A stretch of 64,000 nucleotides of DNA, taken from UHGV virus genome UHGV-0209617; one strand, written 5' to 3'. The notes under the pieces were generated by a model that saw only the letters and a list, made by a program, of their open reading frames with translations, had not been told where the DNA came from and did no database searches. Shown here in pieces: positions 3,045-62,751 of the stretch. The stretch is from a virus. Numbering within the stretch: the first letter of the stretch is position 1; each line of letters starts with the position of its first letter. The translations under genes were made by a program, and so were the position numbers.

Positions 3045-3780
3045 ATCAGTATTATCTCCTCTCATATAATGGTTATTTGTGGTTATAGTAACACAACATA
3101 TTACTGTTTTCACTTTATAGGAAAGTTCTAGATTCTTTATCGTGATAAAGGCTCTAGAATAATAAAATATGACACAGCAAACAGAAGAATTAGTCAAATA
3201 ATTCTTCAAAAGGATCATCTTCGTTTAAAAAGTAGTCCATGTCTAGAATATCTTCATCTGTCATTTGTTGAATTTCTTTTTTGCTGAAGCCCTCTGGTAG
3301 ACGTTTTAGGTATTTTTTCGTATTTCTGCTACATTTTTTGGATTCATTTTATCCCTCCTCACTATTATATATTAACAAGTGGGGAGGGATTTTTCCAGTT
3401 AGAATTAAATCCTCTCTTTTCTTTGAGATAAAATTCAACAAATGGAATATTGTGATGTTCGTGGTATAGGGCGATCATCTTCATTGATGTACGGCAGTGG
3501 GGACAAGATAGTGGATCATAGCCAAATGATACCATTATTCGACAACGCCATGATTCTAGAGATCGCATATAGTTTTGCTGTTCTGGAAAATTTAAAAGAG
3601 TAGTATATAAAGGTGGTATGTAATTATGAACAGGGAAGAAATAAAAAAGGCAGCTGGGAAAGATATTGGGTGCCTTATTTTTTTGCAGGAGATTTGGGAT
3701 TTATGTAGAATAATTAAGATAGGATAGTAGATACATAGGTAAATAAAACTAAGGCTATAGGTATGGGAGGAAATGAGAAT

Positions 3781-4326
3781 ATGTATAAAAGAATATTCAT
3801 AATGATTATCGTGTTGCAGGCACTTTTTATAGGGGTATGCTCTGCCAATTCGGGCAGATTAGCAGACATTGGAGCAGAAGTATTTAAAGAAAGAATAGCT
3901 GCAGTCTCATCTTGTCGAGTGACGGAATTTGTCATTAGTACCCCAACAGGTGTTATAGCAAATTCGCGTCCAGAAACAACGGAGTATGAGTTCCGCATTT
4001 TCAATACCTCAGACAATATGGTACTTTTTGATGTATATGTGAATCAAGAAGGGTATATTGACAGTATAGTAATAAGTGGCCCATTCGCTAATCAAACAAA
4101 TCGTAAATTTTTATCCGATCTTGTAGTTAAATCAATGCTTGTTATTGGCTTGAGTTATGATGAGATGAGGTGGTTAGTTAACAATGGTAGTAATCAAAGT
4201 AGGCTATACGAAGGTAGGGTATATTCTGAAAAATTACTTAGGGATGTTTATTACTCTTTATGCATAGAATCAAACGGTTTTTGTATAAATACCATAGACA
4301 AAGTGTCGTTTAAAGATAGGTTGTAA
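3781..4326 (+). CDS. Secreted protein, paralog family member 1 (unknown function)
   Basis: MYKRIFIMIIVLQALFIGVCSANSGRLADIGAEVF signal-peptide-like N-terminus; conserved VYVNQEGYIDSI and GRDVYY motifs shared with 7393-7959 and 8061-8633; GGGAGG upstream. Confidence 0.7.
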   Translation: MYKRIFIMIIVLQALFIGVCSANSGRLADIGAEVFKERIAAVSSCRVTEFVISTPTGVIANSRPETTEYEFRIFNTSDNMVLFDVYVNQEGYIDSIVISGPFANQTNRKFLSDLVVKSMLVIGLSYDEMRWLVNNGSNQSRLYEGRVYSEKLLRDVYYSLCIESNGFCINTIDKVSFKDRL

Positions 4327-4441
4327 TAAGGAGAGATGTTTTTAAGATAATAAGCTAGTAGGATGTGTAGAATACTATAAAATAGGTTAACGGATACATC
4401 GGTAAATAAAATTAAGGTTATATGTATGGTGGCCAGATGAT

Positions 4442-4740
4442 ATGATAAAAAGAGTATTTTTTACGTTTATCGTGCTGCAGATATTTTTATAGGTCCGTGC
4501 TATGCAAGTTCAGACAGATTAGCAGATATTGGAGCGGAGTTATTTAAAGAAAGAATTGTAGAAGATATACCTTTCAAGGTTGCAGATTTCAAAATAACAA
4601 ATGAAGCGACCGTTGCTAGAGAACAGCCACATATGGCTGGTGACTCTAAATACGAATTTATGGCAGTGCAGAATCAAAATGTAATGCTTATGATTGATGT
4701 TTATGTGAACCGAGAAGGTTACATAGATAGTATTATTAAC
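4442..4740 (+). pseudogene. Frameshifted and 3'-truncated copy of the secreted paralog family (closest to 8061-8633)
   Basis: Near-identical DNA to the 5' part of 8061-8633 but with one T missing in a T-run (5 T vs 6 T), giving a stop after 16 codons; homology ends near 4740 where the 536-aa ORF begins. Confidence 0.7.
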
Positions 4741-4754
4741 TGTGGGGAAAATAT

Positions 4755-6365
4755 ATGGATGAGAAGAATTTTATCAGATATGGGGAGAAAGCTATAGAAT
4801 ACCTACATATGGGAGATGAACAAGGTTTTTTTGAGGCCTTGGGGGTTATTAAACATGTTGGAAATAAAGACTACGCTAATATGCTAACATCACTCTATTT
4901 TTATAAGAAAAAGCAGTTTAGAAAATGTATGGACTGTTTAGAAAAAATAGCAGAATGCAAAAACGATAATTTGAAGGAGATGTTAACGGTATGGTATTGG
5001 GATTTTAAAATATGTTGTTTGGCAGAGCAAAAAAAGTTTTCTGAAATATCGAGTATTTTTTGTGAAGATAAAGGACTGTTTAGCGAAGATGATGAGATCA
5101 TAATGCAATATTCAAGCTACGTATATGCTAGATATCTTGCAATAAAAAGTGGATTTCAAAAAGATAAAAACACTGTATATTATCCTGGAATTTTGGGTAA
5201 GAATGTTATTCGTACAGAAGATCAGTTTATGTCTGTTATTTACAGAGAATTAGGTCGAGATTTACTAGATATACATTTAAATTATCATGCTCTTTTACAA
5301 TTGAAGAAGGCAAATGTTGAAAAGAACATTTGTAGGGAAATGAAGGAAAAATTGTTAGTCAAGGTACAATATATCTGTGATTTAGGTGACCAGAAATATT
5401 ATGCATTAACACCGCAAGTTGTTAAATACATGGAGTATATTACAAATATCATTACCAATGAAAAAAATTTAAATGAGGATAAACTTAATGATTTGATTAT
5501 TTCTTTATTTTCAGACGAAATTTTAATCCAAGATATAGACAATTGGTTATTTATGGTTGATTTATTTTCTGTAACGGCAGATAATGAAAAATTTATTAAT
5601 TTCTTTAGATGTTATGATCAATTTATACTTAAATGTCTAAGTAGAGATAATGAGATCGTAGCAAAAAAATTAATATGGATGTGTAATGACGAGAGATTTT
5701 CCTCATTAAAATATGAACATACAACCTTTAAAGATTATTGGGAACATAAGATTGAGCTGTATATGCCTGGGTTTATTGCAAATAGTAGAGTTTATTCATG
5801 TGATAAATATATTCTTGATAATTTATCAGAAAAGAGTAAATGGGCATATGAAGCAGCAATATGGCAGTATGAAAATGTTATGGAATATGGCAGTGAATAT
5901 ATGGATGCTGGTTTGTTGAGTCTAGCGTTTATGAGAGTGCTAGAAACAGAATTGAATGCTAGAGTAATAGCGCCTTTATCAAAAGCTATAAGTGAAGATA
6001 CAAAGGGAAAAGCTTTACTAGACAAATTATTAGTTGGGGCTAATAGTTACCATTATAAGTTTTTGAAAAAAACGAATAAGGGAGCTACATTAGGTCAAAT
6101 CGGGCATTTTCTTGAGGGAATTCGGAAAAAAAGTATCGCAGAATATTCCTGTTTTTATAATATTTTATGTAATAGCTTATTGAGTATTTCTGGAAAAGAG
6201 GCCATAGATGCAGGGATATTCGAAGAAATGACTAGCCAAAAACTAATTGATAAGTATAGAAATCCACCTGCACATTCTAAATATCTTCAAAAGTCAGAAG
6301 CAGTAAAGGGAAAACTATTTGTAGAAGATAGTTTGAGAAAACTATTTACATATATTAACCGATAA
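4755..6365 (+). CDS. Hypothetical protein, 536 aa, unknown function, no signal peptide
   Basis: Long uninterrupted AT-rich ORF beginning where the paralog pseudogene homology stops; no P-loop, nuclease or other recognisable motif. Confidence 0.65.
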   Translation: MDEKNFIRYGEKAIEYLHMGDEQGFFEALGVIKHVGNKDYANMLTSLYFYKKKQFRKCMDCLEKIAECKNDNLKEMLTVWYWDFKICCLAEQKKFSEISSIFCEDKGLFSEDDEIIMQYSSYVYARYLAIKSGFQKDKNTVYYPGILGKNVIRTEDQFMSVIYRELGRDLLDIHLNYHALLQLKKANVEKNICREMKEKLLVKVQYICDLGDQKYYALTPQVVKYMEYITNIITNEKNLNEDKLNDLIISLFSDEILIQDIDNWLFMVDLFSVTADNEKFINFFRCYDQFILKCLSRDNEIVAKKLIWMCNDERFSSLKYEHTTFKDYWEHKIELYMPGFIANSRVYSCDKYILDNLSEKSKWAYEAAIWQYENVMEYGSEYMDAGLLSLAFMRVLETELNARVIAPLSKAISEDTKGKALLDKLLVGANSYHYKFLKKTNKGATLGQIGHFLEGIRKKSIAEYSCFYNILCNSLLSISGKEAIDAGIFEEMTSQKLIDKYRNPPAHSKYLQKSEAVKGKLFVEDSLRKLFTYINR

Positions 6366-6519
6366 TGTATTTTTGTTATTCATATCAAAAATAAGAAAAC
6401 ATAGATAATATTTACAGAATATATAGTTTATTAAATGAACTATATAATACGACGCAATTAAAATATGTACTGGGTTGATTAACAATTTTATTTCAAAGTG
6501 ATGATAGGAGTGTTTAAAG

Positions 6520-7197: not shown

Positions 7198-7392
7198 ATT
7201 ATTTATTTCATATATGGCCTATAGGTTAGAATTAAGGTCTAACTTTTTGAGGTTGGTACAACATAGGGGGAAATCTTTGCTGTCTTATTTTTTGTGCATG
7301 AAATTAGGAATTTATGTGGAATACTATAAAATATGTCAATAGATACATCAGTAAATAAGACTAAGGTTATAAGTATGGGAGGGGACCATAAT

Positions 7393-7959
7393 ATGCTTAA
7401 AAGAATATTCATAATGATTATCGTGTTGCAGGCATTTTTTATAGGGGTATGCTCTGCCAATTCGGGCAGATTAGCAGATATTGGAGCAGAAGTATTTAGA
7501 GGAAAAATGGTGGAGAGTACGAATTCTTTTGTGAGTGGATTAGAAATTAAAAAGCTATCAGGAGGAATGGCAAAGCTATATCCAGGAACAACATTATATA
7601 CATTTTTTATGTTTGATAATTTGAATACAGATAAAGTTGTCAGTGTTTCGGTATTTGTAAATCAAGAAGGTTATATTGATGCTATAGGCGTAGCTGGCTC
7701 AGGAGCAAGTGAAAGCAGTAGAGCGTTTTCGACAAATATTGTGGAAGAGTCTATGAGGGCTATTGGTTTAAGTAATGATGACATTAACTGCTTGACAACT
7801 AAAGGTATACAAGGGAAAAAATATCAAGGGGTAGTTTTTTCTGAAAATATGGGTAGAGACGTTTATTATACATTTTGGATGGGACCTAATGCTGTCCATT
7901 CAAGTATTATAGATAGAATGTCTTATACGAATAGGGGTAATTTGTTTAGAGCAAGTTAG
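7393..7959 (+). CDS. Secreted protein, paralog family member 2
   Basis: MLKRIFIMIIVLQAFFIGVCSANSGRLADIGAEVF...FVNQEGYIDAI...GRDVYY; conserved ~70-nt upstream leader shared with the copy at 3781. Confidence 0.7.
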   Translation: MLKRIFIMIIVLQAFFIGVCSANSGRLADIGAEVFRGKMVESTNSFVSGLEIKKLSGGMAKLYPGTTLYTFFMFDNLNTDKVVSVSVFVNQEGYIDAIGVAGSGASESSRAFSTNIVEESMRAIGLSNDDINCLTTKGIQGKKYQGVVFSENMGRDVYYTFWMGPNAVHSSIIDRMSYTNRGNLFRAS

Positions 7960-8060
7960 TAAAATATACACAAAATGTATGTCACGGCTATGTATAGCTT
8001 AAGGGAGATAGGTATAAAGAAATAAATTTTTGAGTATATTTATGTAAAGGGGAAGATGAT

Positions 8061-8633
8061 ATGATAAAAAGAATATTTTTTACGTTTATCGTGCTGCAGA
8101 TATTTTTTATAGGGCCATGCTATGCAAGTTCAGACAGATTAGCAGATATTGGAGCGGAGTTATTTAAAGAAAGAATTGTAGAAGATATACCTTTTGAGGT
8201 TACAGATTTCAAAATAGCAAATGAAGCGTCCGTTGCTAGAGAACAGCCACATATGGCTTGTGACTCTAAATACGAATTTATGGCAGTGCAGAATCAAAAT
8301 GTAATGCTTATGATTGATGTTTATGTAAACCGAGAAGGTTACATAGATAGTATTATTATATGTGGGCCATCCGTCGAAAAAAGAAATAGCAAGTTTTTAA
8401 CACTCGTATTAGCAGAGTCTATGAAGGCTATAGGATTAAATATGGATGAGATAATGTGGTTATGTTCTAAAGGTTCAATATCAGGAAATACATATGAGGG
8501 GAGTGTTTTTTCTACAGGAATGGGAAGAACTGTCTATTATAGTATGAGTTTAACATCGGATGGCTTTGGTATTAATAGAATCGATAGAATGTCTTTAACA
8601 GATAGGTTTACAAGATCAATGTTAGCTAACTAA
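8061..8633 (+). CDS. Secreted protein, paralog family member 3
   Basis: MIKRIFFTFIVLQIFFIGPCYASSDRLADIGAELF...VYVNREGYIDSI...GRTVYY; SD-like AAAGGGGAAG upstream. Confidence 0.7.
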   Translation: MIKRIFFTFIVLQIFFIGPCYASSDRLADIGAELFKERIVEDIPFEVTDFKIANEASVAREQPHMACDSKYEFMAVQNQNVMLMIDVYVNREGYIDSIIICGPSVEKRNSKFLTLVLAESMKAIGLNMDEIMWLCSKGSISGNTYEGSVFSTGMGRTVYYSMSLTSDGFGINRIDRMSLTDRFTRSMLAN

Positions 8634-8988: not shown

Positions 8989-9231
8989 ATGAGCGTTGTA
9001 GTAAAAAAAATAGGTGATATGTCTGTAAAAGTAATCAGTGCAGACGATATTGCTTCAATCCGCCGGGAAATAAGTAGTAGAGATATGGAAATGGATAAAA
9101 GAGCTGTTGTAGCCGTAAATTCAGCTATAAATAGGGCGCAGGTATGTAATAAGCCTATAGCTAAATATGATTTGGCAAGTGGAAGGGCATATTTAGAATA
9201 TGCTGATGGGAGTAGGGATTATGTCAACTAA
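8989..9231 (+). CDS. Hypothetical small protein (80 aa) overlapping the start of the zeta-like kinase pseudogene
   Basis: ORF with an extended -10-like TGgTACAAT upstream; its 3' end overlaps the ATG at 9221 by 11 nt. Confidence 0.5.
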   Translation: MSVVVKKIGDMSVKVISADDIASIRREISSRDMEMDKRAVVAVNSAINRAQVCNKPIAKYDLASGRAYLEYADGSRDYVN

Positions 9232-9773
9232 GAAGCAGATGATATTGGTGTTAGTTGGTTCCAATGGCTCTGGAAAAAGTACTATTACCAAATTCTTTGA
9301 TGTTGTTGGCGAATATACTAATGCTGATGATATTGTAGCAGCCACTGGAATGGATAATCTTGCTGCAGCACGAATGGCTGATGAAAAATGTATTCTGCTA
9401 TAAAAGAAAAACGGGATTTTACCTTTGAAACGGTACTATCTTCAGAGTATAAGTTTGATATATTAAATAAGGCTAAAGCAGAGGGTATTTTATTAAGTGT
9501 GTATTTGTATTGACCGTGAATCCCTACATAAATGTAGCTAGAGTGCAGATGCGTGTAGCTAATGGTGGTCATTTTGTGGAAAAAGATAAGATTTTATCAA
9601 GATACTATAAATCATTGACAAATATAAAGAAACTGTTAGAAATATGTGATATTATGCATGTTTATGATAATACCGTTACCCCAACGCGTATCATACGAAA
9701 GCATAAGGATGATATTTCTACTTTTGCTAGTGAAATATGGAGCGAAGAGCAGATTCTAAAACTTATGTATTAA
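9221..9773 (+). pseudogene. Zeta-toxin-like P-loop kinase gene disrupted by at least two frame changes
   Basis: Walker A LVGSNGSGKST in the first segment, ...RDFTFETVLSSEYKFDILNKAKAEGILLSVYLY in a second frame, ...RVQMRVANGGHFVEKDKILSRYY in a third; stops at 9403 and about 9511. Confidence 0.55.
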
Positions 9774-10488: not shown

Positions 10489-10517
10489 TTGCCGTTGTAC
10501 TATTGACTTGCTATAAT
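10489..10517 (+). promoter_or_regulatory. Sigma-A-type promoter candidate (TTGCCG, 17-bp spacer, extended -10 TGcTATAAT)
   Basis: Hexamer spacing and extended -10 read directly; 49 nt upstream of the ATG at 10566. Confidence 0.5.
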
Positions 10518-10565
10518 TTAATAAATGACAATATTAATTTAATGAAGATACGGAGATTTGAGCAT

Positions 10566-11384
10566 ATGGAAAAGAATCTTGATGAGGCTGTTAAATGGTT
10601 GCGTAAGGCAGCAGAGCTTGGGCATAAGGATGCAATGGTAAAGCTGGGCGAGCTACTCAGTGGTACAGAGGAGCCATTGACAAAACTATTGGAAAAATCA
10701 TATATGGAAGGCTATGCAGATGGCAAAAATGGCAAGGCTAATAAATATTTCAAGGAAGCATATATTAAATCTACTATGGATAGAGCAGGTTTTGTTAATG
10801 TTAAGGTTGGAGATATAATCACATTTGGCAATTATTGGCAGGATAAAGATAAGTCAGCTGGTAAGCAGCCAGTAGAGTGGCAGGTGCTTGATGTCAAGGA
10901 TGGCAAGGCATTAGTTATTAGTAAATATGGTTTAATAAATCATAAATATAATAAAGAATGGACGGATGTTACATGGGAAACATGTACCTTGAGAAAATGG
11001 CTGAATGATACCTTTATTAAGGATATTTTCTCCGCAGAGGAAATGAAGGCTGTTATGTTATCAGATGTTAGTGCAGATAAAAATCCTAATTATAACACAA
11101 ATCAGGGAAATGACACTAAGGATAAATTGTTCCTGCTGAGTATAAAGGAAGTGGAGCAATATTTTGTTAGTGATGAAAAAAGACTGTGTAAGCCAACAGA
11201 ATATGCAGTTAACAACGGAGCTTATGAGAATAACCGTGGGCATAGTTGGTGGTGGCTACGCTCTGCTGGTGGCTATAGTAGCGATGCGGCGTATGTGGTC
11301 AGTTATGGCTGCGTCTACTACAGTGGCCGTAGTGTGTTCAGCGACGATGGTTCTGTGCGCCCAGCTTTTTGGCTAAATCTTTAG
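10566..11384 (+). CDS. Sel1-like repeat plus DUF6273-like domain protein
   Basis: N-terminal DEAVKWLRKAAELGHKDAMVKLGELL is Sel1/TPR-like; C-terminal W-rich block (WQVLDV...WETCTLRKWLN...WWWLRSAGGYS...VRPAFWLNL) is typical of the DUF6273 pattern as I recall it; start chosen at the ATG with a GGAG upstream. Confidence 0.6.
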   Translation: MEKNLDEAVKWLRKAAELGHKDAMVKLGELLSGTEEPLTKLLEKSYMEGYADGKNGKANKYFKEAYIKSTMDRAGFVNVKVGDIITFGNYWQDKDKSAGKQPVEWQVLDVKDGKALVISKYGLINHKYNKEWTDVTWETCTLRKWLNDTFIKDIFSAEEMKAVMLSDVSADKNPNYNTNQGNDTKDKLFLLSIKEVEQYFVSDEKRLCKPTEYAVNNGAYENNRGHSWWWLRSAGGYSSDAAYVVSYGCVYYSGRSVFSDDGSVRPAFWLNL

Positions 11385-11735: not shown

Positions 11736-12357
11736 AGTTTAGGTTGAGTATGTAGAACTGCTATTGGCAGGGGTGGGTATGTAGGGACAATGTGGTTCTG
11801 AAATAGTGAACATATCGAAGCTGAAAGGTACGTGGATATTGAGGTTAGGTAGATATGTTCAGTGCGAGCAGGTTGAATAGATATGAAAAGAAAATGCCCC
11901 AGACCGTGGTATTCCACTTCCTACAATAATTCAGTATGGCAGTGCCGTAACCGCTATTCAGCCGTGAAATGCAAGACCATGAATATCTATGACAAGCTGC
12001 TGTTTATGTCCTGCACGATGTGGCAAAGGACATACGGACAGCAATAGTGGAATTCGCAGCAGATGTGGTCAGTGCTGACAGGCTGGCAGCCATTGAACGC
12101 TACATAGAGAACTTTGAAAGCATGAGTGCCTGGAAGATGCTTTCCAATGCAGATGACCTGTAATTCGTGATGAACATGGTTCTGGTCAAAACGGATAGGC
12201 GCATTGAGGTGATATGGTTGGACGGTGGTGTGGATGGATATGAAATTCCGAGGTATACACCGAAGGGGGGATAGAATGATTAGGTGTCTTTTTAGCATTG
12301 TAAAAGTAATTACATTTACAATGCTAAAAAGATGTAGAAAATATTTTGTAATAGGGA

Positions 12358-12642: not shown

Positions 12643-14298
12643 ATGATTAAGGAGGTAACGGAGATGGTTGCGAAAAATTATGGTGTTGTTTACACACCGA
12701 ATAGACTGGCTGAGTTCGCAGCAGAACTTTTATATAGAGAGGCAGCAGAAACTAATACAGAAATAAAGTCGGTATTGGATCCTGCGTGTGGCGAATGCGC
12801 ATTGCTATGTGCTGCAAAGAAATATTTGAATGGTAATGTGAAATATTTGGGAATTGATGTCGATAAAGAAGCAATAATGAATGTTGAGGATGATTTTGAA
12901 ATTCTTTATAATGATTCAATTCTTCCGCGAAATGTAAAAAAACAGACGGCAGAATATTGGAAGAGCAAGATGCCAGTAATATCTGCTATAATTGCAAATC
13001 CACCGTGGAGTTCCGAAAAAATATATGTGCGAGAAGAATTGCAGAGTGCCGGTTTCTCGTTGACCACAGGACAATATGATAGCTTTGTGCTATTTATTGA
13101 GTTGGCATATAATCTGCTTGATGATGGAGGATACTTTTCGTTTATTATCCCCGATTCGTTATTTGATGCACAAAACGAAAAACTAAGAAGATTTTTGACT
13201 GAAAAGATGCAAATCAAAGTGATTGCCAGACTTGGAGAGAAGATTTTTGAAGAAGTGAATAGAGCAACTACTGTTATTGTTTGCAGAAAAGAAAAGCCAG
13301 TCAAAGATTCTGTCACCCACTGTTTCAGACTTACTACGGAAGAAAGAAGAAAGTTTTTGAATTCGAATCAGAGTTTGTTAAACTTTTACAACGAAGATGT
13401 GCATGATGTGTTGCAGGGGCGATTTGCTGAAAACGCTGCCTGTAACTTTGACGTTGATACGCGCACTGATGAAGAGGCATTGTTGGCTAAAATTAAGAAG
13501 CAGTCTATAAGTTGGGAGGATATATTCATTTTTGGTCGAGGTGTTGAGATATCCAAAACAGGAAAGGTCGTATTTTGTCCTTCGTGTGGTTATGCCCAAG
13601 GGTATAAAAAATCACAAATGGCTGAAGGAAAAAAAGAATGTACGAACTGTGGCAGTGAGATATCGGTTACTACGGCAAGTGTTCAAAATGTTATTTCACA
13701 AAGTCAAACGCCACAGACTGTTCAGATATATGTTGGAGAGAATGTTCGGAGATATGGAATAACAGGAGAATGCTATATCAAACCCAACATTCCCGGAATC
13801 AATTATAAAAATCGTGCGATGTACAACCCACCAAAACTGTTGGTGAGAAAGACTGGACTTGGAATATATGCATCGATTGATTATACGGGAAGCATGACAA
13901 GTCAGGCTGTATATATTTTGAAATTTAAAAACAGTCAACATAAGGCTCCGTTGGAATATTATCTGGCATTGCTTAACTCACGAGTGGTCTACTATTTTTA
14001 TTTGAAAGTATATGGAGAAAATGAATGGAAGTCCCATCCGTACTTTACGAAACAGATTATTTATTCTCTGCCTATTAGAGAATATGAGGATAGTGAGTTA
14101 GATAAACAGATCATTAAAGTGGCATCGGAATTGGCGCATAAATATGAATATGTCAAGGATGTTCAGCTTGAGAAGTTGGTAATGAAAAAGTATGGTCTGT
14201 CAGAGACCGAAAGCAATATGGTTTATGGTGAGATGAATCGTCTGCCTGACTTGAGTGCGATTAACAATATGAAAGTTGAGGTGGAAGCGAATGTATAG
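12643..14298 (+). CDS. N6-adenine DNA methyltransferase, gamma-class order (motif I then NPPW), with zinc ribbon and C-terminal recognition domain; probable start ATG at 12664
   Basis: VLDPACGECALL (motif I-like), IIANPPWS (motif IV), CPSCG...CTNCG zinc ribbon; AAGGAGGT 8 nt before the ATG at 12664. Confidence 0.85.
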   Translation: MIKEVTEMVAKNYGVVYTPNRLAEFAAELLYREAAETNTEIKSVLDPACGECALLCAAKKYLNGNVKYLGIDVDKEAIMNVEDDFEILYNDSILPRNVKKQTAEYWKSKMPVISAIIANPPWSSEKIYVREELQSAGFSLTTGQYDSFVLFIELAYNLLDDGGYFSFIIPDSLFDAQNEKLRRFLTEKMQIKVIARLGEKIFEEVNRATTVIVCRKEKPVKDSVTHCFRLTTEERRKFLNSNQSLLNFYNEDVHDVLQGRFAENAACNFDVDTRTDEEALLAKIKKQSISWEDIFIFGRGVEISKTGKVVFCPSCGYAQGYKKSQMAEGKKECTNCGSEISVTTASVQNVISQSQTPQTVQIYVGENVRRYGITGECYIKPNIPGINYKNRAMYNPPKLLVRKTGLGIYASIDYTGSMTSQAVYILKFKNSQHKAPLEYYLALLNSRVVYYFYLKVYGENEWKSHPYFTKQIIYSLPIREYEDSELDKQIIKVASELAHKYEYVKDVQLEKLVMKKYGLSETESNMVYGEMNRLPDLSAINNMKVEVEANV

Positions 14299-15349
14299 AT
14301 ATATAGGAAACAAATCAAAGCTGACTCCATACATTCTTGATAGGGTGGAACAGCTTATTGGAAAAACAGGAATTGTTGCTGACATTATGGCTGGAACAGG
14401 AACTGTGGCATTAGAATTGAGAAAAGCAGGTTATTCGGTTATCGCATCTGATGTAATGACCTATTCGTACCATCATTTGATGGTTAATCTTTGCTTAGAT
14501 TCAGCTCCTTCTTTTTCTGGGCTTGTGAATCATGGAGCAATAGGCAAGAATGAGGTGGATGCATATGGTGCAATCCTGACTTATTTAAATTGCATTGAAC
14601 CCAAAGAAGGTTTTTTCTTCAAGGAATTTTCTCCGGGTGGAACACCGCAGAATGGTTGCGACCCGAGAAAATATTTCACTACGGAAAATGCAAAGAAAAT
14701 TGATGCGATTAGAGAAAAAATAAATGAGTGGATTGATAATGGATATGTGAGCAAAGCTGAAGAATCGCTTTTAAAACATACTCTTATTATGGCAGTAAAC
14801 GAGGTTGCCAATATATCTGGAACTTACGGATATTTTTTGGCTGATTTCAAAAAGAATGCCAATGCACAGATTGATTTAAAACCTGTGGAATTTTGTTCTG
14901 TGAATTCAACTGGTCACATGGTAAAATTGGGATTTGCTGAAAATTTAGCTGCAACAATTACAGTTGATTTGTGCTACATCGACCCTCCGTATATGAAGAG
15001 ACAGTATGCTGCGAATTATCATATTCTGGAAACCATTGCACGAGGAGATTTCCCTGATGCTGTTGGTAAAAGTGGCTTGCGTGACTGGTGGGAGCAGCAC
15101 TCTAAATTGTGTACCAAAACACGAGGATTACAATCGTTTGAAAAGATATTAGGTGATATGCATTGCCCGAAATTTCTGATTAGCTACAGTGAGGATGGTT
15201 TGTTTACGCTGGGGCAATTAGAAGAATGTTTTAGCAAGTTTGGAACTGTTGACGTTCAAGAAATTGATTACAATCGATTTAGAAGCAATGATAGCAAGTT
15301 GCCTAAAAAACTGAAGGAATATTTGATTTCTATAGAAAGGCAGGTATAA
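14291..15349 (+). CDS. D12-class (Dam-like, alpha-order) N6-adenine DNA methyltransferase
   Basis: RYIGNKSKL N-terminal motif, ADIMAGTGTV (motif I), CYIDPPYM (motif IV); ATG overlaps the upstream stop (ATGTATAG). Confidence 0.85.
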   Translation: MYRYIGNKSKLTPYILDRVEQLIGKTGIVADIMAGTGTVALELRKAGYSVIASDVMTYSYHHLMVNLCLDSAPSFSGLVNHGAIGKNEVDAYGAILTYLNCIEPKEGFFFKEFSPGGTPQNGCDPRKYFTTENAKKIDAIREKINEWIDNGYVSKAEESLLKHTLIMAVNEVANISGTYGYFLADFKKNANAQIDLKPVEFCSVNSTGHMVKLGFAENLAATITVDLCYIDPPYMKRQYAANYHILETIARGDFPDAVGKSGLRDWWEQHSKLCTKTRGLQSFEKILGDMHCPKFLISYSEDGLFTLGQLEECFSKFGTVDVQEIDYNRFRSNDSKLPKKLKEYLISIERQV

Positions 15350-15353
15350 GTGA

Positions 15354-17024
15354 ATGGAGTGCATTGAAAGAATATTTTACAGAAAGATTAATCCTTCTGA
15401 TTTCAAAAAGTTGTATGATATTGACAAACCAGAAGGTGGCGGTGGTCAGACATACTTGGAAGCCGCTGGTATTTCAAATGAAAAAATCGTTGATTTCCTT
15501 TCCTATGCGGAGGTTACAAACAGTCCTTTGCCAGATGAAACAAGGTCTGTTTATACATTCAATGCCTATGTTTTGGGCGATTCAAAGGGTAAATGTTCGT
15601 TTGTAGAATTTGCACCTCGCAAAGGAAGAAATAACTATCGTATAAGCCGTCAGAACATGAAATATAAACATCCGGCATGGAGTTTGGATAATGGATTTCC
15701 CGAACCATCAAAAGGTGATGATGGCGAATACACATCTGCAGGCGATTTTGTGGGAATCATTGATAATCTTGTTATTCTTATCATAAGAACTACAAATCGG
15801 CGTTATTATGCAGGTTTTGTAAATATAGCGACAATGCCAGAGAACTGGCCACACAATATTGGCTTAGAGGGCATTTTTAGTGGTGAACGCAGAGATGTAC
15901 TAAAAATGGATGCGTATAAACTACAGTTTGTTAATGATGCCTGTAATCCATTCGGTGATTATGTCCCAACAATCGAAGAATGTAATCGAGCGACTACTGG
16001 TTGCAATGTGCTTTTGTACGGAGTTCCCGGAGCAGGAAAGAGTTGGACAATTGAACACGAATATTGTGCCGATGAAGGGTGTATGGAGCGATTGGTTTTC
16101 CATCCGGATTATATGTATTCGGATTTCGTTGGACAAATTTTGCCTGTAGTAAGGGACGATGACAAGGTTCGTTATGAGTTTACGCCGGGTCCGTTTACCA
16201 AATTATTAAAAAAAGCATATTGGAATACAGAACAGTCTTTTTACCTTATAATAGAAGAAATAAATCGTGGTAATGCACCAGCGATATTCGGTGAAATATT
16301 TCAGCTTTTGGATAGAAAAGATGAAGACGAAATAGATGAAAATAGGGAGATTCTCTACAAAAAAGGCACAAGTGAGTATGGAATAACAAATGCCAATATT
16401 GCACGAATCGTTTATGGCGATGAAAACCATAAGGTTCGAATTCCTGCAAATATGTCTATTTTGGGTACAATGAATACTTCTGACCAAAATGTTTTTACAT
16501 TAGACACAGCATTTCAGAGAAGATGGATTATGAGAATGATTCCGAATTCATTTGATAACCATAAGTTCGCAGACAAGAAGATTTTGGATACTGATATTTC
16601 CTGGAGACAGTTCTGTGAAGCAATTAATGAGGAAATTTTGCGTAGAAACAACATCACATCTTCTGAGGATAAGCGACTTGGGGCATATTTTATCTCGGCT
16701 TCGGATTTGGAGATGAAACCAATCACAGACGGGATGAGCGAAAAAGAAAAAATCCAAGTGGAGCATAGCAACAGCAGATTTGCAGAAAAAGTATTGAAAT
16801 ATTTATGGGATGATGCTTTCAAATTTTCCCATCAAGATACATTTAACACAAGACAGTTTGGTAGTCTTGAAAAAGTTATCGAAGGCTTTATGAATCCTGC
16901 CAAGCCTAAAAATGAGCGTTTTCGTGTATTCAATGAGAACCTTCGTAAAATGATTTTGGATGGAGTAACAGCAGAATCAAACGAGGTTTCTGATGATGAC
17001 AGCGAAGGCTCACAGGAATCTTAA
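15354..17024 (+). CDS. McrB-like AAA+ GTPase restriction subunit with an N-terminal domain of about 200 aa that I cannot assign
   Basis: LLYGVPGAGKSW (Walker A), LIIEEINRGNAPAIFGEIFQLLDR (McrB-type IDEINRAN-like motif), ILGTMNTSDQN (NTxD-type motif). Confidence 0.85.
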   Translation: MECIERIFYRKINPSDFKKLYDIDKPEGGGGQTYLEAAGISNEKIVDFLSYAEVTNSPLPDETRSVYTFNAYVLGDSKGKCSFVEFAPRKGRNNYRISRQNMKYKHPAWSLDNGFPEPSKGDDGEYTSAGDFVGIIDNLVILIIRTTNRRYYAGFVNIATMPENWPHNIGLEGIFSGERRDVLKMDAYKLQFVNDACNPFGDYVPTIEECNRATTGCNVLLYGVPGAGKSWTIEHEYCADEGCMERLVFHPDYMYSDFVGQILPVVRDDDKVRYEFTPGPFTKLLKKAYWNTEQSFYLIIEEINRGNAPAIFGEIFQLLDRKDEDEIDENREILYKKGTSEYGITNANIARIVYGDENHKVRIPANMSILGTMNTSDQNVFTLDTAFQRRWIMRMIPNSFDNHKFADKKILDTDISWRQFCEAINEEILRRNNITSSEDKRLGAYFISASDLEMKPITDGMSEKEKIQVEHSNSRFAEKVLKYLWDDAFKFSHQDTFNTRQFGSLEKVIEGFMNPAKPKNERFRVFNENLRKMILDGVTAESNEVSDDDSEGSQES

Positions 17025-17040
17025 AGCGAGGTGAGCGACA

Positions 17041-18321
17041 TTGGATTTAGGCTTAAACTTAAAAGTTAAATGTCATGTGAATAAAAATGGTGATGGCGAT
17101 AGGTTTGTCGGGATTAAGGCTGATGCTAATCAAGCAATGGTCTATTTTCCAATGGGGTATCGCCTGCCAGACAATGAAGAAGATATTAGGGATGATATTC
17201 TAAAATTGATTTCTGTATTAGCTGAGTTTACGGATTCAAAAGACAAGGTATTGGCTATGCAGAAATTTGAAGCACCACAGTCTGTGAATTTTCCAATCAA
17301 TGCCTATATGAATATTATCCGATACTATTTGGAACAACGTTCATATTACACAGAAAAGGATCCTATTCTAAAGACGAGTGACAGAGGAAAAATCGACTTT
17401 GCAGCATCTTTGCGTAGAAATGTTAGCTTTTTTCAAGAAGATGGAACTCCGTTTTTTGATAAATATACAGTAAAAGGGTCAACTCCTAATGATAAAAATT
17501 TAATAACTATGATTCACAAATACTGTGTGCATGAAAGTTTTGCTCAGATGGGTTGGCTGTTTATGCCGGATGTCCCACAAGATCCACATATTGAACGAAA
17601 CATTCCGCTTTTCCTCAGTGTACTGAAGAAAAAATTGGCAGTCACGCATCTTGAAAAGGATATTCTGCTATTTGAAGCAATGATTTCTATGCTGGAATAT
17701 TTGGATGAGAAAAGTGACGATAAACAATACTATTTTGGAACAGATAGATTTGAATATGTGTGGGAAAAACTGATAGATGCAGTGTTTGGCATAAAAGAAA
17801 AGAATGATTATTTTCCACGAACCTCTTGGAAACTAAACTATGGTGACCAACGAAGAAATTATGCATTAGAGCCGGACACCATAATGCTTTGTAATGGAAA
17901 AATCTATGTCATTGATGCAAAGTATTATAGATACGGTGTAACCGGTACACCTTCGCATTTGCCGGAATCATCATCTATCAACAAGCAGATTACATATGGT
18001 GAGTACATATATAATCATAAGAAATTTAAGGATGTATATGGTGATGATGTTCCTGTGTATAACGCATTCCTTATGCCGTATAACAAACAGGATAATCCAT
18101 TTCATATCAATGAGTATTTCGCCAATATTGGTGAGGCTGATAGTGACTGGAAATATGGCAATCATAATTATGAACGGGTGCAAGGAATTGTAGTTGATAT
18201 TCGTTTCTTGATGAACAATTACTATGGTTCGCACAAGAGTAAAATTATTAAGATGGCGAAGCTCATCGAGGAAGCCCTGCAGGAAAATGCAGATACGCTT
18301 CCAGAAGAAAAGACTGAATAA
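17041..18321 (+). CDS. McrC-like PD-(D/E)xK nuclease subunit (TTG start)
   Basis: ALEPDTIMLCNGKIYVIDAKYY gives PD...D-x-K; position immediately after the McrB-like gene; GAGGTGA 7 nt before the TTG. Confidence 0.75.
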   Translation: MDLGLNLKVKCHVNKNGDGDRFVGIKADANQAMVYFPMGYRLPDNEEDIRDDILKLISVLAEFTDSKDKVLAMQKFEAPQSVNFPINAYMNIIRYYLEQRSYYTEKDPILKTSDRGKIDFAASLRRNVSFFQEDGTPFFDKYTVKGSTPNDKNLITMIHKYCVHESFAQMGWLFMPDVPQDPHIERNIPLFLSVLKKKLAVTHLEKDILLFEAMISMLEYLDEKSDDKQYYFGTDRFEYVWEKLIDAVFGIKEKNDYFPRTSWKLNYGDQRRNYALEPDTIMLCNGKIYVIDAKYYRYGVTGTPSHLPESSSINKQITYGEYIYNHKKFKDVYGDDVPVYNAFLMPYNKQDNPFHINEYFANIGEADSDWKYGNHNYERVQGIVVDIRFLMNNYYGSHKSKIIKMAKLIEEALQENADTLPEEKTE

Positions 18322-19544: not shown

Positions 19545-19978
19545 AAAAAACTACTCCATATTTCCTTGCCCCTCGTAGAAGGGTCTTTTTTTATGTCGAA
19601 AAGTAAGTGATTACATAAGTAATAATGTAATTATAACGCTTACTATTGCTTGTTTCAAGCTAGTATAGTAATGAAATACACAGAAAGTAAGTGATTATAT
19701 CAGAAATTTACTTACTATACTGAAATTCTTATACTTAAAGACAGTGAAGGACAACCAAACTTTATATACAGCGGAGGTGTTTTTCACATCCCTGTTTCAA
19801 TGTTCATCGCCTGATCAGCGATGCCCAGAGCGGAGAAACGGACACAAGTAAATATCAGTCAACCCACTGGGACGGTTGGCCAGCTAAGAAATGAGGATTT
19901 CATTCTTATGGCCAATTATTATGGGAAGTTCAGTGTGGGTCCTCATTTCGGTTTTCAGACCGAAGGAGGGTCTACACG

Positions 19979-25157: not shown

Positions 25158-25506
25158 TGAAAGTCCAATCGGTTTGAGCATCTGTGAGAGGCTTGATTGG
25201 TTCTGTCAAATCCCAAAATGCAAGGAGAGCCGGATTTCTCTGACTCTCTCAAGTATGTATCCTTGAATACATACCCCAATTAGTGTCCATATTATACAGC
25301 TTCCGTTCGAAATATGCAAGACCTAAATGAAATTTTTCAAGGCAGACATTCGTGCTGATAAATCCGGATGAATGACGATTGCTGCTACTGCGGGATTGAC
25401 GGATATTTTATAGTCATCTGTGATTTTCTCAAATTCTCGAATGAAGGCCTTTATTTCGGTTTTGGCATATGTAGCAATTTTAAGAGCAAAAAAAGATTAA
25501 AAATAC

Positions 25507-38562: not shown

Positions 38563-40170
38563 ATGGCAATAAGGAAACTGAAAAAATACATACCGACAAA
38601 ATTCATGTCTGAAGACAGCCATTATGATAAGGGGGCGGCTGACTATGCCGTAGCATTTATTGAAGCCTTATGCCATACCAAGGGAACTTGGGCAGGTAAG
38701 CCTTTTGAGCTAATCGATTGGCAGGAACAGATTATTCGTGACCTTTTTGGTATCCTAAAGCCAAATGGATATAGGCAGTTTAATACAGCCTATGTTGAAA
38801 TACCCAAAAAGCAAGGAAAATCTGAGCTGGCAGCGGCCGTTGCAATCCTTTTAACCTGCGGTGATGGTGAGGAACGTGCGGAGGTTTATGGCTGTGCTGC
38901 AGACCGGCAACAGGCATCCATTGTTTTTGATGTTGCTGCGGATATGGTCAGTATGTGTCCTGCTTTAGCCAAGCGCGTAAAAATACAGAAATCTATGAAG
39001 CGCATGATATATCTTCCTACGAACAGCTTCTACCAGGTGCTTTCGGCAGAGGCCTATTCAAAGCATGGCTTCAATATCCATGGTGTTATCTTTGATGAGC
39101 TTCATACCCAGCCAGACCGCAAGCTGTATGATGTAATGACCAAAGGCTCCGGCGATGCAAGAATGCAGCCGATGTATTTTAATATAACTACAGCAGGGAC
39201 GGATACTCATTCCATATGCTACGAAATACATCAGAAGGCAAAGGATATTATTGCTGGGCGGAAGATTGATACAACCTTCTATCCTGTGATTTATGGTGCG
39301 GATGAAGGAGAGGATTGGACTTCTCCAGAAGTGTGGAAGAAGGCAAATCCGTCTCTTGGCATTACTGTTGGCATGGATAAGGTTGAAGTTGCTTGTGAGT
39401 CTGCAAGGCAGAATCCAGGGGAAGAAAATGCTTTTCGCCAACTTCGTCTTAACCAATGGGTAAAGCAGTCGGTTCGTTGGATGCCTATGGAAAAATGGGA
39501 TGAGTGCAGCTTCAAAGTTAACCCTGATGACCTAGAAGGACGCGTATGCTATGGAGGTCTTGACCTATCCAGCACCACAGATATAACAGCCTTTGTATTG
39601 GTGTTTCCTCCGGAGGATGAGGAGGATAAATATCATATACTGCCTTATTTCTGGATACCGGAGGAAACAATGGATCTTCGTGTAAAGCGTGACCATGTGC
39701 CCTATGATATCTGGCATAAGCAGGGATTCCTTGAAACCACCGAAGGCAATGTAGTCCACTATGGCTACATCGAGAAATTCATTGAATCCCTCGGTGAAAA
39801 ATATAATATCCGTGAGATTGCCTTTGATAGATGGGGTGCGACACAGATGGTGCAGAATCTTGAGGGCATGGGATTTACTGTTGTTCCCTTTGGACAAGGT
39901 TACAAGGATATGAGTCCGCCAACCAAGGAGCTGATGAAGCTGACCCTTGAAAAGAAACTGGCTCATGGCGGTCATCCAGTTCTGAGGTGGATGGCAGACA
40001 ATATCTTCATCCGAAGGGATCCCGCTGGGAACATCAAGGCAGACAAAGAAAAGTCCACAGAGAAGATTGACGGTGTCATAGCCACCATAATGGGGCTGGA
40101 CAGAGCAATTCGCTGTGGATTGAATTCTGGAGATTCCGTTTATGATGGGCGAGGAATTTTGTTAATATAA
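38563..40170 (+). CDS. Phage terminase large subunit (intact)
   Basis: 536-aa ORF; nuclease-domain C-terminus matches the fragments at 1-267 and 986-1203; preceded by CCGCC/GGCGG hairpin plus T-run at 38523-38543. Confidence 0.9.
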   Translation: MAIRKLKKYIPTKFMSEDSHYDKGAADYAVAFIEALCHTKGTWAGKPFELIDWQEQIIRDLFGILKPNGYRQFNTAYVEIPKKQGKSELAAAVAILLTCGDGEERAEVYGCAADRQQASIVFDVAADMVSMCPALAKRVKIQKSMKRMIYLPTNSFYQVLSAEAYSKHGFNIHGVIFDELHTQPDRKLYDVMTKGSGDARMQPMYFNITTAGTDTHSICYEIHQKAKDIIAGRKIDTTFYPVIYGADEGEDWTSPEVWKKANPSLGITVGMDKVEVACESARQNPGEENAFRQLRLNQWVKQSVRWMPMEKWDECSFKVNPDDLEGRVCYGGLDLSSTTDITAFVLVFPPEDEEDKYHILPYFWIPEETMDLRVKRDHVPYDIWHKQGFLETTEGNVVHYGYIEKFIESLGEKYNIREIAFDRWGATQMVQNLEGMGFTVVPFGQGYKDMSPPTKELMKLTLEKKLAHGGHPVLRWMADNIFIRRDPAGNIKADKEKSTEKIDGVIATIMGLDRAIRCGLNSGDSVYDGRGILLI

Positions 40171-40889: not shown

Positions 40890-42167
40890 ATGAATATATT
40901 TACAAAACTTTTCAAGTCGAGGGATAAGCCGACCAACTATCTGGGCGGTTTATCCTTTTTATTTGGTCAGACTGCAGCCGGTAAGCCGGTTAATGAGAAG
41001 TCTGCCATGCAGGTAACAGCAGTTTATGCCTGTGTCAGAATTTTGGCAGAATCCATAGCAGGGCTGCCGCTTCATGTGTATAGGTACAATTCGGGTGGCG
41101 GCAAGGAAATGGTGACAGACCATAATCTGTACCGCATCCTGCATGATGAGCCTAATCCGGATATGACAAGCTTCATATTTAGGGAAACACTGATGAGCCA
41201 TCTTCTCTTGTGGGGTAATGCCTATGCACAGATTATTCGTGATCATGCTGGCAGGATGATAGGGCTGTATCCTTTACTTCCAGATAAGGTAGAGGTAGAT
41301 AGGGACAGCAGCACCGGTGAAATCTTCTATACCTATACCAAAAGCACAGACGAAAATCCGAACTTCAAGCAGGGCGGACAGATAAGGCTTAACAAGAATG
41401 CTGTACTTCATATTCCAGGTCTTGGCTTTGATGGACTTGTAGGATATAGTCCTATTGCCATGGCGAAAAATGCTGTAGGTATTGCTCTTGCCACCGAAGA
41501 ATATGGTGCTACCTTCTTTGCTAACGGTGCAACACCGGGCGGTATCTTAGAGCACCCTGGTGTGGTAAAAGACCCAGAACGTCTACGTCAGAGCTGGCAG
41601 AGTCAGTTTGGGCAGAAGAACAGCCACAGGGTAGCTGTGCTGGAAGAAGGCATGACCTTTCACCAGATGACCATACCGCCAGAAGAAGCACAGTTCCTGG
41701 AAACAAGGAAGTTTCAGATTGATGAGATTGCCCGTATTTTCAGGGTACCGCCACACATGGTAGGTGACCTTGAAAAATCCAGCTTCTCTAATATTGAGCA
41801 GCAGAGCCTTGAGTTTGTGAAATACACACTGAACCCTTGGGTTATCCGCTGGGAGCAGGCCCTTCAGAAAGCACTCCTTACAGATAAGGAAAAGGGCGAG
41901 TATTTCGTAAAGTTCAACGTGGATGGACTTCTCCGTGGTGACTACCAGAGCCGTATGAACGGCTACGCCATTGGGCGGCAGAATGGCTGGTTTTCAGCCA
42001 ATGACATCAGGGAAATGGAGAACCTAAATCCAATACCTGATGAAGAAGGTGGAAATCTCTATCTTATTAATGGCAATATGACAAAATTAAAGGATGCTGG
42101 CCTTTTTGCCGGTCAGCAGAAAGGAAAAGAAAATGAAGAGAAAGTTTTGGAACTGGGTGCGAAATGA
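40890..42167 (+). CDS. Phage portal protein (HK97-like)
   Basis: 425 aa; position after terL; homolog of the fragment at 1721-2212. Confidence 0.85.
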   Translation: MNIFTKLFKSRDKPTNYLGGLSFLFGQTAAGKPVNEKSAMQVTAVYACVRILAESIAGLPLHVYRYNSGGGKEMVTDHNLYRILHDEPNPDMTSFIFRETLMSHLLLWGNAYAQIIRDHAGRMIGLYPLLPDKVEVDRDSSTGEIFYTYTKSTDENPNFKQGGQIRLNKNAVLHIPGLGFDGLVGYSPIAMAKNAVGIALATEEYGATFFANGATPGGILEHPGVVKDPERLRQSWQSQFGQKNSHRVAVLEEGMTFHQMTIPPEEAQFLETRKFQIDEIARIFRVPPHMVGDLEKSSFSNIEQQSLEFVKYTLNPWVIRWEQALQKALLTDKEKGEYFVKFNVDGLLRGDYQSRMNGYAIGRQNGWFSANDIREMENLNPIPDEEGGNLYLINGNMTKLKDAGLFAGQQKGKENEEKVLELGAK

Positions 42168-60203: not shown

Positions 60204-60228
60204 ATAAGCACGGTTGGAGGTGATTGCC

Positions 60229-60810
60229 ATGAATGACATTGAAAAGCTTGTTGATGAGTCAGGAATGATTACAACTAGAGATATAGTGAAAAATAATCAG
60301 TCAAAAGTAGAATTTTACAATTACCTGAGAAAAAATGATTTTGAACAAGTATCGCGTGGTATATATGCTTCTAAGGATGCGTGGGTAGACCCATTATTGA
60401 TTGCGCATATGAGATGTCCTAAAGCGGTGATCTCTCATGATGTGGCACTTCATTATTATGGCTTGGTTGATAGAGAGCCTTCAGCTCCAACGCTTACTAT
60501 TTATTCTGGATACAACACAAGCAGGTTAAAAGAAGCAGGGTACAAGGTGTTTTTCGTGAAGAAGGAATACCTTGATGCTGGCAAAGAAGAGGTTGTAAAT
60601 TTTGATGGCAACATCATTCCTATGTATAACCTTGAAAGAACGATGTGTGACCTTGTCAGAAACAGAAGCAGCTTTGAGATTCAAGATTTCAATGCAGCTA
60701 TAAAAGCGTATGCCAGAAAAAAGGAAAAGAATCTTACAAGGCTATTTGAATATGCGAAAATGCTTAGGGTGGAAAAATTGATGCGGTCATATATGGAGGT
60801 GCTTTTGTAA
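60229..60810 (+). CDS. abiEi: AbiEi-family antitoxin / transcriptional regulator
   Basis: N-terminal DNA-binding-like region ending ...VSRGIYA; paired with a DUF1814-type nucleotidyltransferase; GGAGGTGA SD. Confidence 0.75.
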   Translation: MNDIEKLVDESGMITTRDIVKNNQSKVEFYNYLRKNDFEQVSRGIYASKDAWVDPLLIAHMRCPKAVISHDVALHYYGLVDREPSAPTLTIYSGYNTSRLKEAGYKVFFVKKEYLDAGKEEVVNFDGNIIPMYNLERTMCDLVRNRSSFEIQDFNAAIKAYARKKEKNLTRLFEYAKMLRVEKLMRSYMEVLL

Positions 60811-62526: not shown

Positions 62527-62751
62527 ATGCAGAAATCAGATCTTGGGGAACGGGAATACCTTAGCAAGAAGTATACTGCCGTCTTCTTCGGACTCAGTCC
62601 CAGGCGGCTTGAGCGATTCCTCAAAGCAGATGACTATGATTTTGTTGTGTATTATAAGAAAAGAACACTGATATTAAGGGAGGCCTTCAACAGATATCTC
62701 TGGAGGAATCCTGATGTAAGGGAGATGTTGAAACGTGGCAAGACGAGGTGA
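62527..62751 (+). CDS. Second excisionase-like HTH protein
   Basis: YLSKKYTAVFFGLSPRRLERFLK; start chosen at the ATG 8 nt after GGAGG. Confidence 0.55.
   Translation: MQKSDLGEREYLSKKYTAVFFGLSPRRLERFLKADDYDFVVYYKKRTLILREAFNRYLWRNPDVREMLKRGKTR

Follow-up and report, generated by a model that had tools for sequence, protein, structure and literature searches.

HEPN domains are marked by an Rx4-6H motif at the end of the third helix, with a polar residue (N, D or H) following the arginine, an acidic residue, when present, in the second helix, and inserts between helices 2 and 3 (PMC3710099). Two HEPN families, LA2681 and C6orf70/DUF4209, have been reported as fusions to tetratricopeptide repeats (TPRs) (Anantharaman et al. 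2013; PMC3710099). Among single-polypeptide HEPN defence proteins, HepS, a solo HEPN protein encoded by prophage Gifsy-1, mediates abortive infection by cleaving tRNA anticodons once a phage tail-tip protein has activated it (PMC13043305), and RAZR, which combines a zinc finger with a divergent HEPN domain (DUF4145), is activated by phage ring proteins (PMC13017515). In this study, these systems were compared with a gene for a 536-aa protein in the virus genome UHGV-0209617, in a stretch of 64,000 nucleotides that is referred to here as the window. Immediately upstream of that gene lies the stub, a truncated and frameshifted copy of a gene for a small secreted protein. The 536-aa protein, and not the stub, is the interesting part of the locus: it belongs to a rare family that is absent from domain and defence libraries, and its architecture and conserved residues, as seen in alignments and a structural model, fit a defence RNase of the TPR–HEPN type. 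The best explanation of the locus as a whole, that the stub is a recombination scar and its neighbour a TPR–HEPN-like defence gene, is assigned a probability of roughly 0.6.

An earlier note on this DNA had described the gene as AT-rich, and its product as cytoplasmic and as an orphan of no recognisable family. The G+C content of the gene is indeed low, at 29.9 %, compared with 35.6 % for the island in which it lies and 46.4 % for the adjoining prophage, and the protein has no N-terminal signal sequence, as its neighbours do. No meaningful match was obtained when the protein was scanned against Pfam, NCBIfam, PHROGs, PADLOC and the sequences in PDB, in agreement with the note as far as curated families are concerned. 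A match of the query to the PADLOC model PDC-M32B (E=0.004, aa 87–134) recurred in only one of 51 relatives and was rejected as noise. The description as an orphan, on the other hand, does not hold. There are three full-length relatives of 34–41 % identity with the same start and length, one of which (P0003) is from Anaerovibrio lipolyticus, and a 96 % allele is carried by the related contig L001. An exhaustive HMMER search of 1.84 billion representatives with a three-sequence profile returned 224 cluster representatives with E≤1e–3 (114 with E≤1e–10), nearly all of which match residues ~350–534 of the query alone. The source names of the matches to the C-terminal alignment in an indexed protein search were all 'hypothetical protein'; with the full-length alignment, that search gave three matches, swamped by low-complexity words. 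No match was obtained by tblastn of phage and plasmid collections, and no relative was found in pattern scans of GTDB genomes, IMG/VR and JGI metagenomes. The database entry identical to the window protein is annotated 'MAG TPA: hypothetical protein [Caudoviricetes sp.]' and is situated on a 154.7-kb contig.

The window gene and the L001 allele differ at 49 nt, with a synonymous divergence (dS) of 0.085, a non-synonymous divergence (dN) of 0.019 and a dN/dS of 0.23, indicative of purifying selection. The gene belongs to an undescribed family and is an accessory gene in its own right, maintained by selection. Its homologues in two further related contigs, L003 (2887–4497) and L004 (2007–3617), which derive from Hadza and other gut metagenomes, contain two frameshifts of opposite sign, the loss of a G at nt 308 and an A7 to A8 change at nt 908. 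These frameshifts are identical in the two independent samples and split the gene into open reading frames (ORFs) of 129, 194 and 228 aa; in protein cluster 1, the broken forms are found on more contigs than the intact forms. Decay in some strains is as expected for an accessory gene.

The AlphaFold2 (AF2) model of the 536-aa protein is all alpha, with a mean predicted local distance difference test score (pLDDT) of 88.9 and a predicted template modelling score (pTM) of 0.79. Its N-terminal part consists of tandem antiparallel helix hairpins that can be superposed on TPR structures, and is thus modelled as a TPR-like alpha-solenoid. A middle helical region and a conserved C-terminal domain follow (Table 1). 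The C-terminal domain occurs in several contexts. In the 172 near-full-length domain matches, the region N-terminal to it is shorter than ~30 aa in 28 (stand-alone domains), 200–400 aa long in 63 (the TPR-like type, as in the window protein) and 400–500 aa long in 59; the ~700-aa relative P0025, an example that was checked, has an N-terminal SEC-C zinc-binding motif. At two of the stand-alone loci that were checked, L013 (6970–8735; 298+244 aa) and L014 (1325–3349; 423+200 aa), the N- and C-terminal modules are adjacent separate genes, with gaps of 134 and ~150 bp, respectively. The upstream ORFs match the N-terminal profile of the family (E=1e–8 for the 298-aa ORF and 1e–18 for the 423-aa ORF), and thus the two modules are linked even when encoded separately.

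Conservation within the C-terminal domain was determined over the same 172 domains. It is highest at D384 (95 %), R394 (92 %), E397 (98 %), E399 (95 %), N401 (92 %), G447 (94 %), R502 (99 %), N503 (98 %), P504 (95 %), A506 (98 %), H507 (97 %) and A516 (97 %). Residues R502 to H507 are part of a motif, [KR][YF]RNPPAH[TS][RK], that is present in most members. In the AF2 model, a first helix (359–378) is followed by a long second helix (386–414) that holds E397 and E399, a helical insert of ~80 residues (415–494), a short helix (495–502) that ends at R502, and a long C-terminal helix (513–533). R502-NPPA-H507 is therefore predicted to occupy the position of the Rx4-6H motif, N503 is the polar residue after the arginine, the two glutamates would supply the acidic residue of helix-2, and the insert would lie where HEPN inserts are found. 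Since the alignment and the model agree with all four features of the published description (PMC3710099), the C-terminal domain is probably a divergent HEPN-like RNase of the metal-independent type, and this is the assignment that we favour on the strength of the alignment and the model. The gene does not appear to be part of a HEPN–MNT (HepT/MntA) pair, as no nucleotidyltransferase gene adjoins it in the window or in the Pfam-annotated related loci. A literature search on 'TPR-HEPN' found no paper.

The earlier note had placed the gene in an island made of secreted proteins and defence genes, and its surroundings do hold a complete LlaJI-type restriction–modification (R–M) operon at 12643–18321, which encodes an N6_Mtase/Eco57I/TaqI_C methylase, a D12 methylase, an AAA_5 McrB-like GTPase and RE_LlaJI. 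An operon of the same type adjoins P0152, a stand-alone member with the C-terminal domain alone (locus L013), and an Eco57I-type R–M system and a helicase are found near the gene in L003. Other family loci have, in their vicinity, TIR/SEFIR, HindVP endonuclease, ArdA and transposases; ScoMcrA-HNH and an integrase; AbiEii and a type IV secretion system coupling protein; two giant STAND NTPases; or an MmeI-type R–M system with ImmA/IrrE. Besides the split N- and C-terminal modules, no partner gene is conserved across the family loci. These neighbourhoods are consistent with a defence-island gene.

Several observations weigh against a TPR–HEPN-like defence gene. The association with defence genes comes from about ten neighbourhoods with no background control, and is anecdotal. 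No profile or sequence similarity to HEPN was found in Pfam, NCBIfam, PADLOC, PHROGs or PDB sequences, including searches with the consensus and with a motif-region profile at E≤10, and a Foldseek search of PDB and BFVD returned nothing below E=0.01. The Pfam models Abi_2, DUF4145 and HEPN_LA2681 gave no match near the gathering score to the query, to 51 relatives or to the consensus. The motif loop (residues 501–510) is modelled with moderate confidence only (pLDDT ~63). As the gene is broken by two frameshifts in L003 and L004, it is dispensable and decaying in some strains. Scans for promoters and terminators around the recombination joint described below, and in the L001 spacer upstream of the gene, gave counts equal to those expected for shuffled sequence. 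An Rx4H motif can, furthermore, arise by chance in helical proteins; this too counts against the assignment, but conservation at 97–99 % argues against chance here. A match to Symplekin_C (E=2e–4, below the cut-off of that model) was located in the low-complexity insert and was rejected.

Of the alternatives, the one that survives best is that the 536-aa protein has no catalytic activity and serves as a TPR scaffold or receptor, either a peptide-sensing regulator resembling the RRNPP family or an adaptor, with a C-terminal domain that binds or oligomerises and is not an RNase. It takes up the same TPR-like fold, and the lack of any HEPN profile match and the moderate pLDDT of the motif loop noted above leave room for it. 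The features of RRNPP receptors are nevertheless not those of this protein: the TPR-like part is N-terminal, there is no helix-turn-helix (HTH) match, and no small ORF is present in 6366–6519. We regard this alternative as unlikely.

The earlier note had suggested no function for the protein. If the TPR–HEPN-like assignment is adopted, a mode of action can be proposed by analogy with the single-polypeptide HEPN defence proteins HepS and RAZR. The 536-aa protein would be a single-polypeptide abortive-infection or toxin module, in which the TPR-like and middle regions keep the HEPN-like domains inactive. A trigger, a protein or peptide that probably comes from a phage, would be bound by the TPR-like part; such binding would form or expose the composite R/H site of a dimeric, metal-independent HEPN RNase, and cleavage of cellular or phage RNA would then abort the infection. 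The chances that the protein has a role in defence are about evenly balanced. A more specific proposal, and a tentative one to which we give somewhat less than an even chance, is that the protein represents an undescribed single-protein anti-phage or abortive-infection system, made up of a TPR-like sensor and a highly divergent family of HEPN-like RNases. The signature of that family would be DAG..SL...R..E.E.N ... [YF]RNPPAH[TS], and two-gene split and ~700-aa versions would also belong to it; it would be a thin family, with 224 clusters at 50 % identity among the 1.84 billion representatives, distributed in defence islands of Firmicutes and other bacteria. In a more radical variant of this proposal, the C-terminal domain would not be HEPN but a new helical nuclease or toxin fold. 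Were the HEPN assignment correct, this would be a new family of defence RNases, absent from Pfam, NCBIfam and PADLOC and invisible to current defence-finding pipelines, and a compact sensor-plus-effector protein would be available for studying TPR-mediated trigger recognition. Its natural variants (the split two-gene forms, the other N-termini, including SEC-C, and the Hadza frameshifted alleles) offer material with which to separate the sensing and killing parts.

The 536-aa gene is situated within an array of genes for secreted proteins. The + strand of the window holds four genes or gene remnants of one family of small signal-peptide proteins, namely paralog A, the stub, paralog B and paralog C (Table 1), and self-BLAST revealed that 3656–4746 repeats 7268–8366 at 75 % nt identity. 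A scan for the paralog elsewhere found none. L001, L003 and L004 are collinear with the window from position 4727 on, at 95–97 % nt identity, and have in common with it the order of the 536-aa gene (X), a gene for a 225-aa secreted protein (S) and then a paralog. Upstream of X, by contrast, the three contigs have a 216-bp spacer, preceded by a gene (U) for a signal-peptide protein of 200 aa that is unrelated. The array is thus A-stub-X-S-B-C in the window and U-X-S-B(frameshifted)-C in L001, the paralog B homologue of which (3821–4321) encodes 166 aa rather than the 208 aa of the window copy. In L003 it is U-X(broken)-S-A, followed by a stub of ~20 nt of the same paralog, cut at a different point. 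The array is clearly fluid between contigs, and its members decay independently in different strains. These data bear on the possibility that the 536-aa protein acts together with the secreted paralogs, as a cytoplasmic chaperone, immunity factor or regulator, and that its adjacency to the stub is functional. The gene does sit among same-strand genes for signal-peptide proteins in the window and in all three contigs. More distant family members, however, lack these secreted neighbours, no neighbour is common across loci, the gene immediately upstream differs between the window and the related contigs, and the genes for the secreted proteins decay and shuffle on their own; such a partnership is very unlikely.

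With regard to the stub, the earlier note had reported the loss of one T from a T-run, an end of homology near 4740 and the absence of the 3′-half of the paralog downstream, and each of these observations was reproduced. In a base-by-base count over the alignment of 4442–4746 with 8061–8366, 12 substitutions and one indel were found in 306 columns (95.8 % identity). A run of five T occurs in the stub where the intact window paralog (8103–8108) and the L001 copy have six, and it leads to a TAG stop at 4490–4492, codon 17. The signal-peptide sequence MIKRVFFTFIVLQIFF is still present in the stub. The last paralog-specific base is at 4738, and the 536-aa ORF starts at 4755. Self-BLAST detected only three complete paralogs and the stub, and no orphan 3′-half anywhere in the window. 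The stub is a dead remnant of a secreted-protein paralog that has been inactivated twice, by frameshift and by truncation.

The nature of the joint is apparent from a three-way comparison of paralog C (...GGTTACATAGATAGTATTATTATATGTGGGCC), the sequence upstream of the 536-aa gene in L001, L003 and L004 (...GTCACATATAATATAGTAACATTAACTGTGAGGAAAATATATG) and the window (...GGTTACATAGATAGTATTATTAACTGTGGGGAAAATATATG). The window matches the paralog through the ATTA at 4735–4738, and from the AC at 4739–4740 onwards, including 4748–4754, it matches the upstream sequence of the 536-aa gene. The crossover is situated within that ATTA, and the ATG of the 536-aa ORF follows 17 nt further on. BLAST homology of the three contigs to the window begins slightly earlier, at 4727, and the two parents are alike at ~21 of the 30 positions around the crossover. 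The shared ATTA and the similarity of its flanks point to illegitimate recombination between short stretches of imperfect homology. In the process, the paralog lost its 3′-half and the 536-aa gene lost its native upstream region except for 28 nt; in the three contigs, this region is the 216-bp spacer preceded by gene U. The Shine–Dalgarno-like GGGGAA and the conserved ATG of the gene survive at the joint. Past the frameshift, the frame of the paralog continues as an ORF (4633–4797) that overlaps the 536-aa ORF in a different frame; no fusion protein is formed, and the possibility that the stub is translationally fused to its neighbour was rejected on this ground. Simple insertion of the gene into the paralog was likewise rejected, as there is no 3′-half downstream and an unrelated gene lies upstream in the related contigs. 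Of the earlier proposal of a replacement or fusion and not a simple insertion, there remains a recombination joint that is not a simple insertion; the fusion must be abandoned, since the gene is in another frame and has its own Shine–Dalgarno-like sequence and ATG. The comparison with other strains that the note had suggested was carried out, with related contigs that carry gene U and the spacer in place of the intact paralog it had envisaged. They reverse its view that the 536-aa protein had taken the paralog's place: the gene is the resident, and the stub is the newcomer at the joint.

The order of events would be that the loss of 1 nt in the T-run stopped the stub, after which microhomology-mediated illegitimate recombination brought codon ~99 to within 17 nt of the ATG. 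Either a deletion or an unequal crossover or duplication has left this scar in a paralog array whose order changes from strain to strain, and the stub is an ordinary and well-explained rearrangement scar with a homopolymer frameshift. It documents microhomology-mediated shuffling of a secreted-protein array beside a gut-bacterial prophage, in the course of which a candidate defence gene was cut off from its native upstream region. Given that loss, transcription of the 536-aa gene in the window strain would probably occur by read-through from the promoter of the stub. It is highly improbable that reads mis-joined at the repeated paralog, or other errors of assembly or sequencing, produced the joint, the T5 run or both: the window does come from a contig assembled from a metagenome (DAM45493.1), errors in homopolymer length are frequent, the exact junction was not found in the JGI metagenome collection and relatives of the protein were absent from the IMG/VR and GTDB scans, but the stub and the intact copy differ at 12 dispersed positions across 300 nt and so are separate loci, a repeat chimera would join inside identical sequence, whereas the joint is at a 4-nt microhomology beyond the paralog's homologous partner, the stub that follows paralog A in L003, being cut at another point, independently demonstrates that truncated copies of the paralog exist, and with six T the stub gene would still be truncated.

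Table 1. Features of the 536-aa gene, the stub and the secreted-protein paralogs in the window
Feature	Position	Strand	Description	Basis
Paralog A	3763–4326	+	187 aa, signal peptide; pairs with the stub, mirroring 7333–7959 and 8061–8633	
Stub	4442–4738	+	Pseudogene; 5′ ~52 % (codons 1 to ~99) of a copy of the 190-aa secreted-protein gene	95.8 % nt identity
T5 run	4484–4488	+	–1 frameshift; T6 in intact copies	
Recombination joint	4727–4746	+	Imperfect-homology patch; paralog codons ~93–102 against the upstream sequence of the 536-aa gene	Three-way comparison (window, paralog 8340–8366, L001/L003/L004)
Shine–Dalgarno-like GGGGAA	4744–4749	+	5–10 nt before the ATG; GAGGAA in L001/L003/L004	Direct reading
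536-aa gene (X)	4755–6365	+	Intact	ORF; identical to DAM45493.1
N-terminal region, aa 1–131	4755–5147	+	TPR-like helical hairpins	
Middle region, aa 157–345	5223–5789	+	All-helical	Sequence conserved only among ~500-aa relatives
C-terminal domain, aa 350–536	5802–6362	+	~185-aa conserved domain, putative HEPN-like RNase	224 cluster representatives
E397-x-E399	5943–5951	+	In helix 386–414; candidate HEPN helix-2 acidic residues	Conservation over 172 domains
R502-N-P-P-A-H507	6258–6275	+	Rx4H; end of helix 495–502 and start of the loop before helix 513–533	Conservation, AF2
Paralog B	7333–7959	+	208 aa	ORF listing
Paralog C	8061–8633	+	190 aa, intact, signal peptide; source type of the stub	ORF listing, alignment

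The island occupies ~2.5–19.5 kb of the window and the adjoining prophage ~19.8–64 kb. On the left flank (7–267, 1012–1203 and 1721–2212), there are two copies, 92 % identical in nt, of the 3′-end of a large-terminase gene together with a portal fragment. These fragments are 77–79 % identical to the intact prophage genes at 39904–40160 and 40987–41243, a level of identity that suggests that they are remnants of a second, related prophage bordering the island. Downstream of the paralogs, at 9200–9773, lies a P-loop gene with the Walker A sequence GSNGSGKST and weak matches to AAA_21/AbiEii-type and ABC models; it is broken into ORFs 9200–9403, 9388–9513 and 9510–9773, and is probably a decayed toxin or ATPase gene. 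Between it and the R–M operon, a 293-aa protein with a weak Sel1 repeat match and a DUF6273 match (E=2.6e–30) is encoded at 10503–11384, and a near-perfect palindrome of 46 nt (95.7 % self-complementary) is present upstream of the operon at 12287–12332.

The prophage genes include those for a DNA polymerase, a VapE primase, terminase, a GH25 lysin, an AbiEii toxin and a Tn916-type integrase. Two RNA motifs were detected with Rfam: a DUF2800 RNA at the left end of the prophage (19792–19945, + strand) and an abiF RNA motif (25164–25200, – strand; 43.3 bits), which is intergenic, lies after the gene for the DNA polymerase and has no obvious abiF-type gene following it on the same strand. The AbiEii toxin gene (60810–61664) is preceded by an unannotated 198-aa ORF (60214–60810) in the position expected of the AbiEi antitoxin. 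The segment that holds these two ORFs is low in G+C (37 %), lies between the lysin and the integrase, and is a second site of defence or addiction cargo (60214–61664 and 62735–64000).

In comparison with known systems, the window protein is set apart from the Avs/STAND immune proteins with TPR sensors, and from the RRNPP receptors, by having no NTPase domain, HTH or cognate peptide gene. With lactococcal AbiD/AbiF (Abi_2) and other abortive-infection (Abi) HEPN proteins it shares a single-gene organisation, an RNxxAH-type motif and an occurrence on mobile elements of Firmicutes; it differs from them in its N-terminal architecture and in having no match to Abi_2 or to the Abi models of PADLOC. 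RAZR would resemble it in combining a sensor and a divergent HEPN domain in one polypeptide, a likeness extended by the SEC-C zinc-binding motif of P0025, but the nuclease of RAZR is the Pfam family DUF4145, which the window family does not match, and RAZR has no TPR region. The likeness to HepS is that the candidate is encoded by a single, prophage-associated gene beside which no partner is conserved, and that it has an Rx4-6H motif; HepS, however, is a single HEPN domain (R100–H105) for which no TPR region is reported, and no sequence similarity between the two was detected (PMC13043305). Finally, in comparison with the HEPN superfamily as a whole, the domain in the window is, as modelled, likewise all-alpha, with an Rx4H motif that has N after R and lies at the end of a helix and in the loop, an acid in the upstream helix, a helical insert, a TPR-like fusion and a vicinity of R–M systems and mobile elements. 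It departs from the superfamily in having no detectable similarity to the HEPN models of Pfam, NCBIfam and PADLOC, in the length of its insert (~80 residues), in the unusual rigidity of its motif, Y/F-R-N-P-P-A-H-T/S, and in the possession of a second conserved block, D-A-G-x-x-S-L-x-x-x-R-x-x-E-x-E-x-N.

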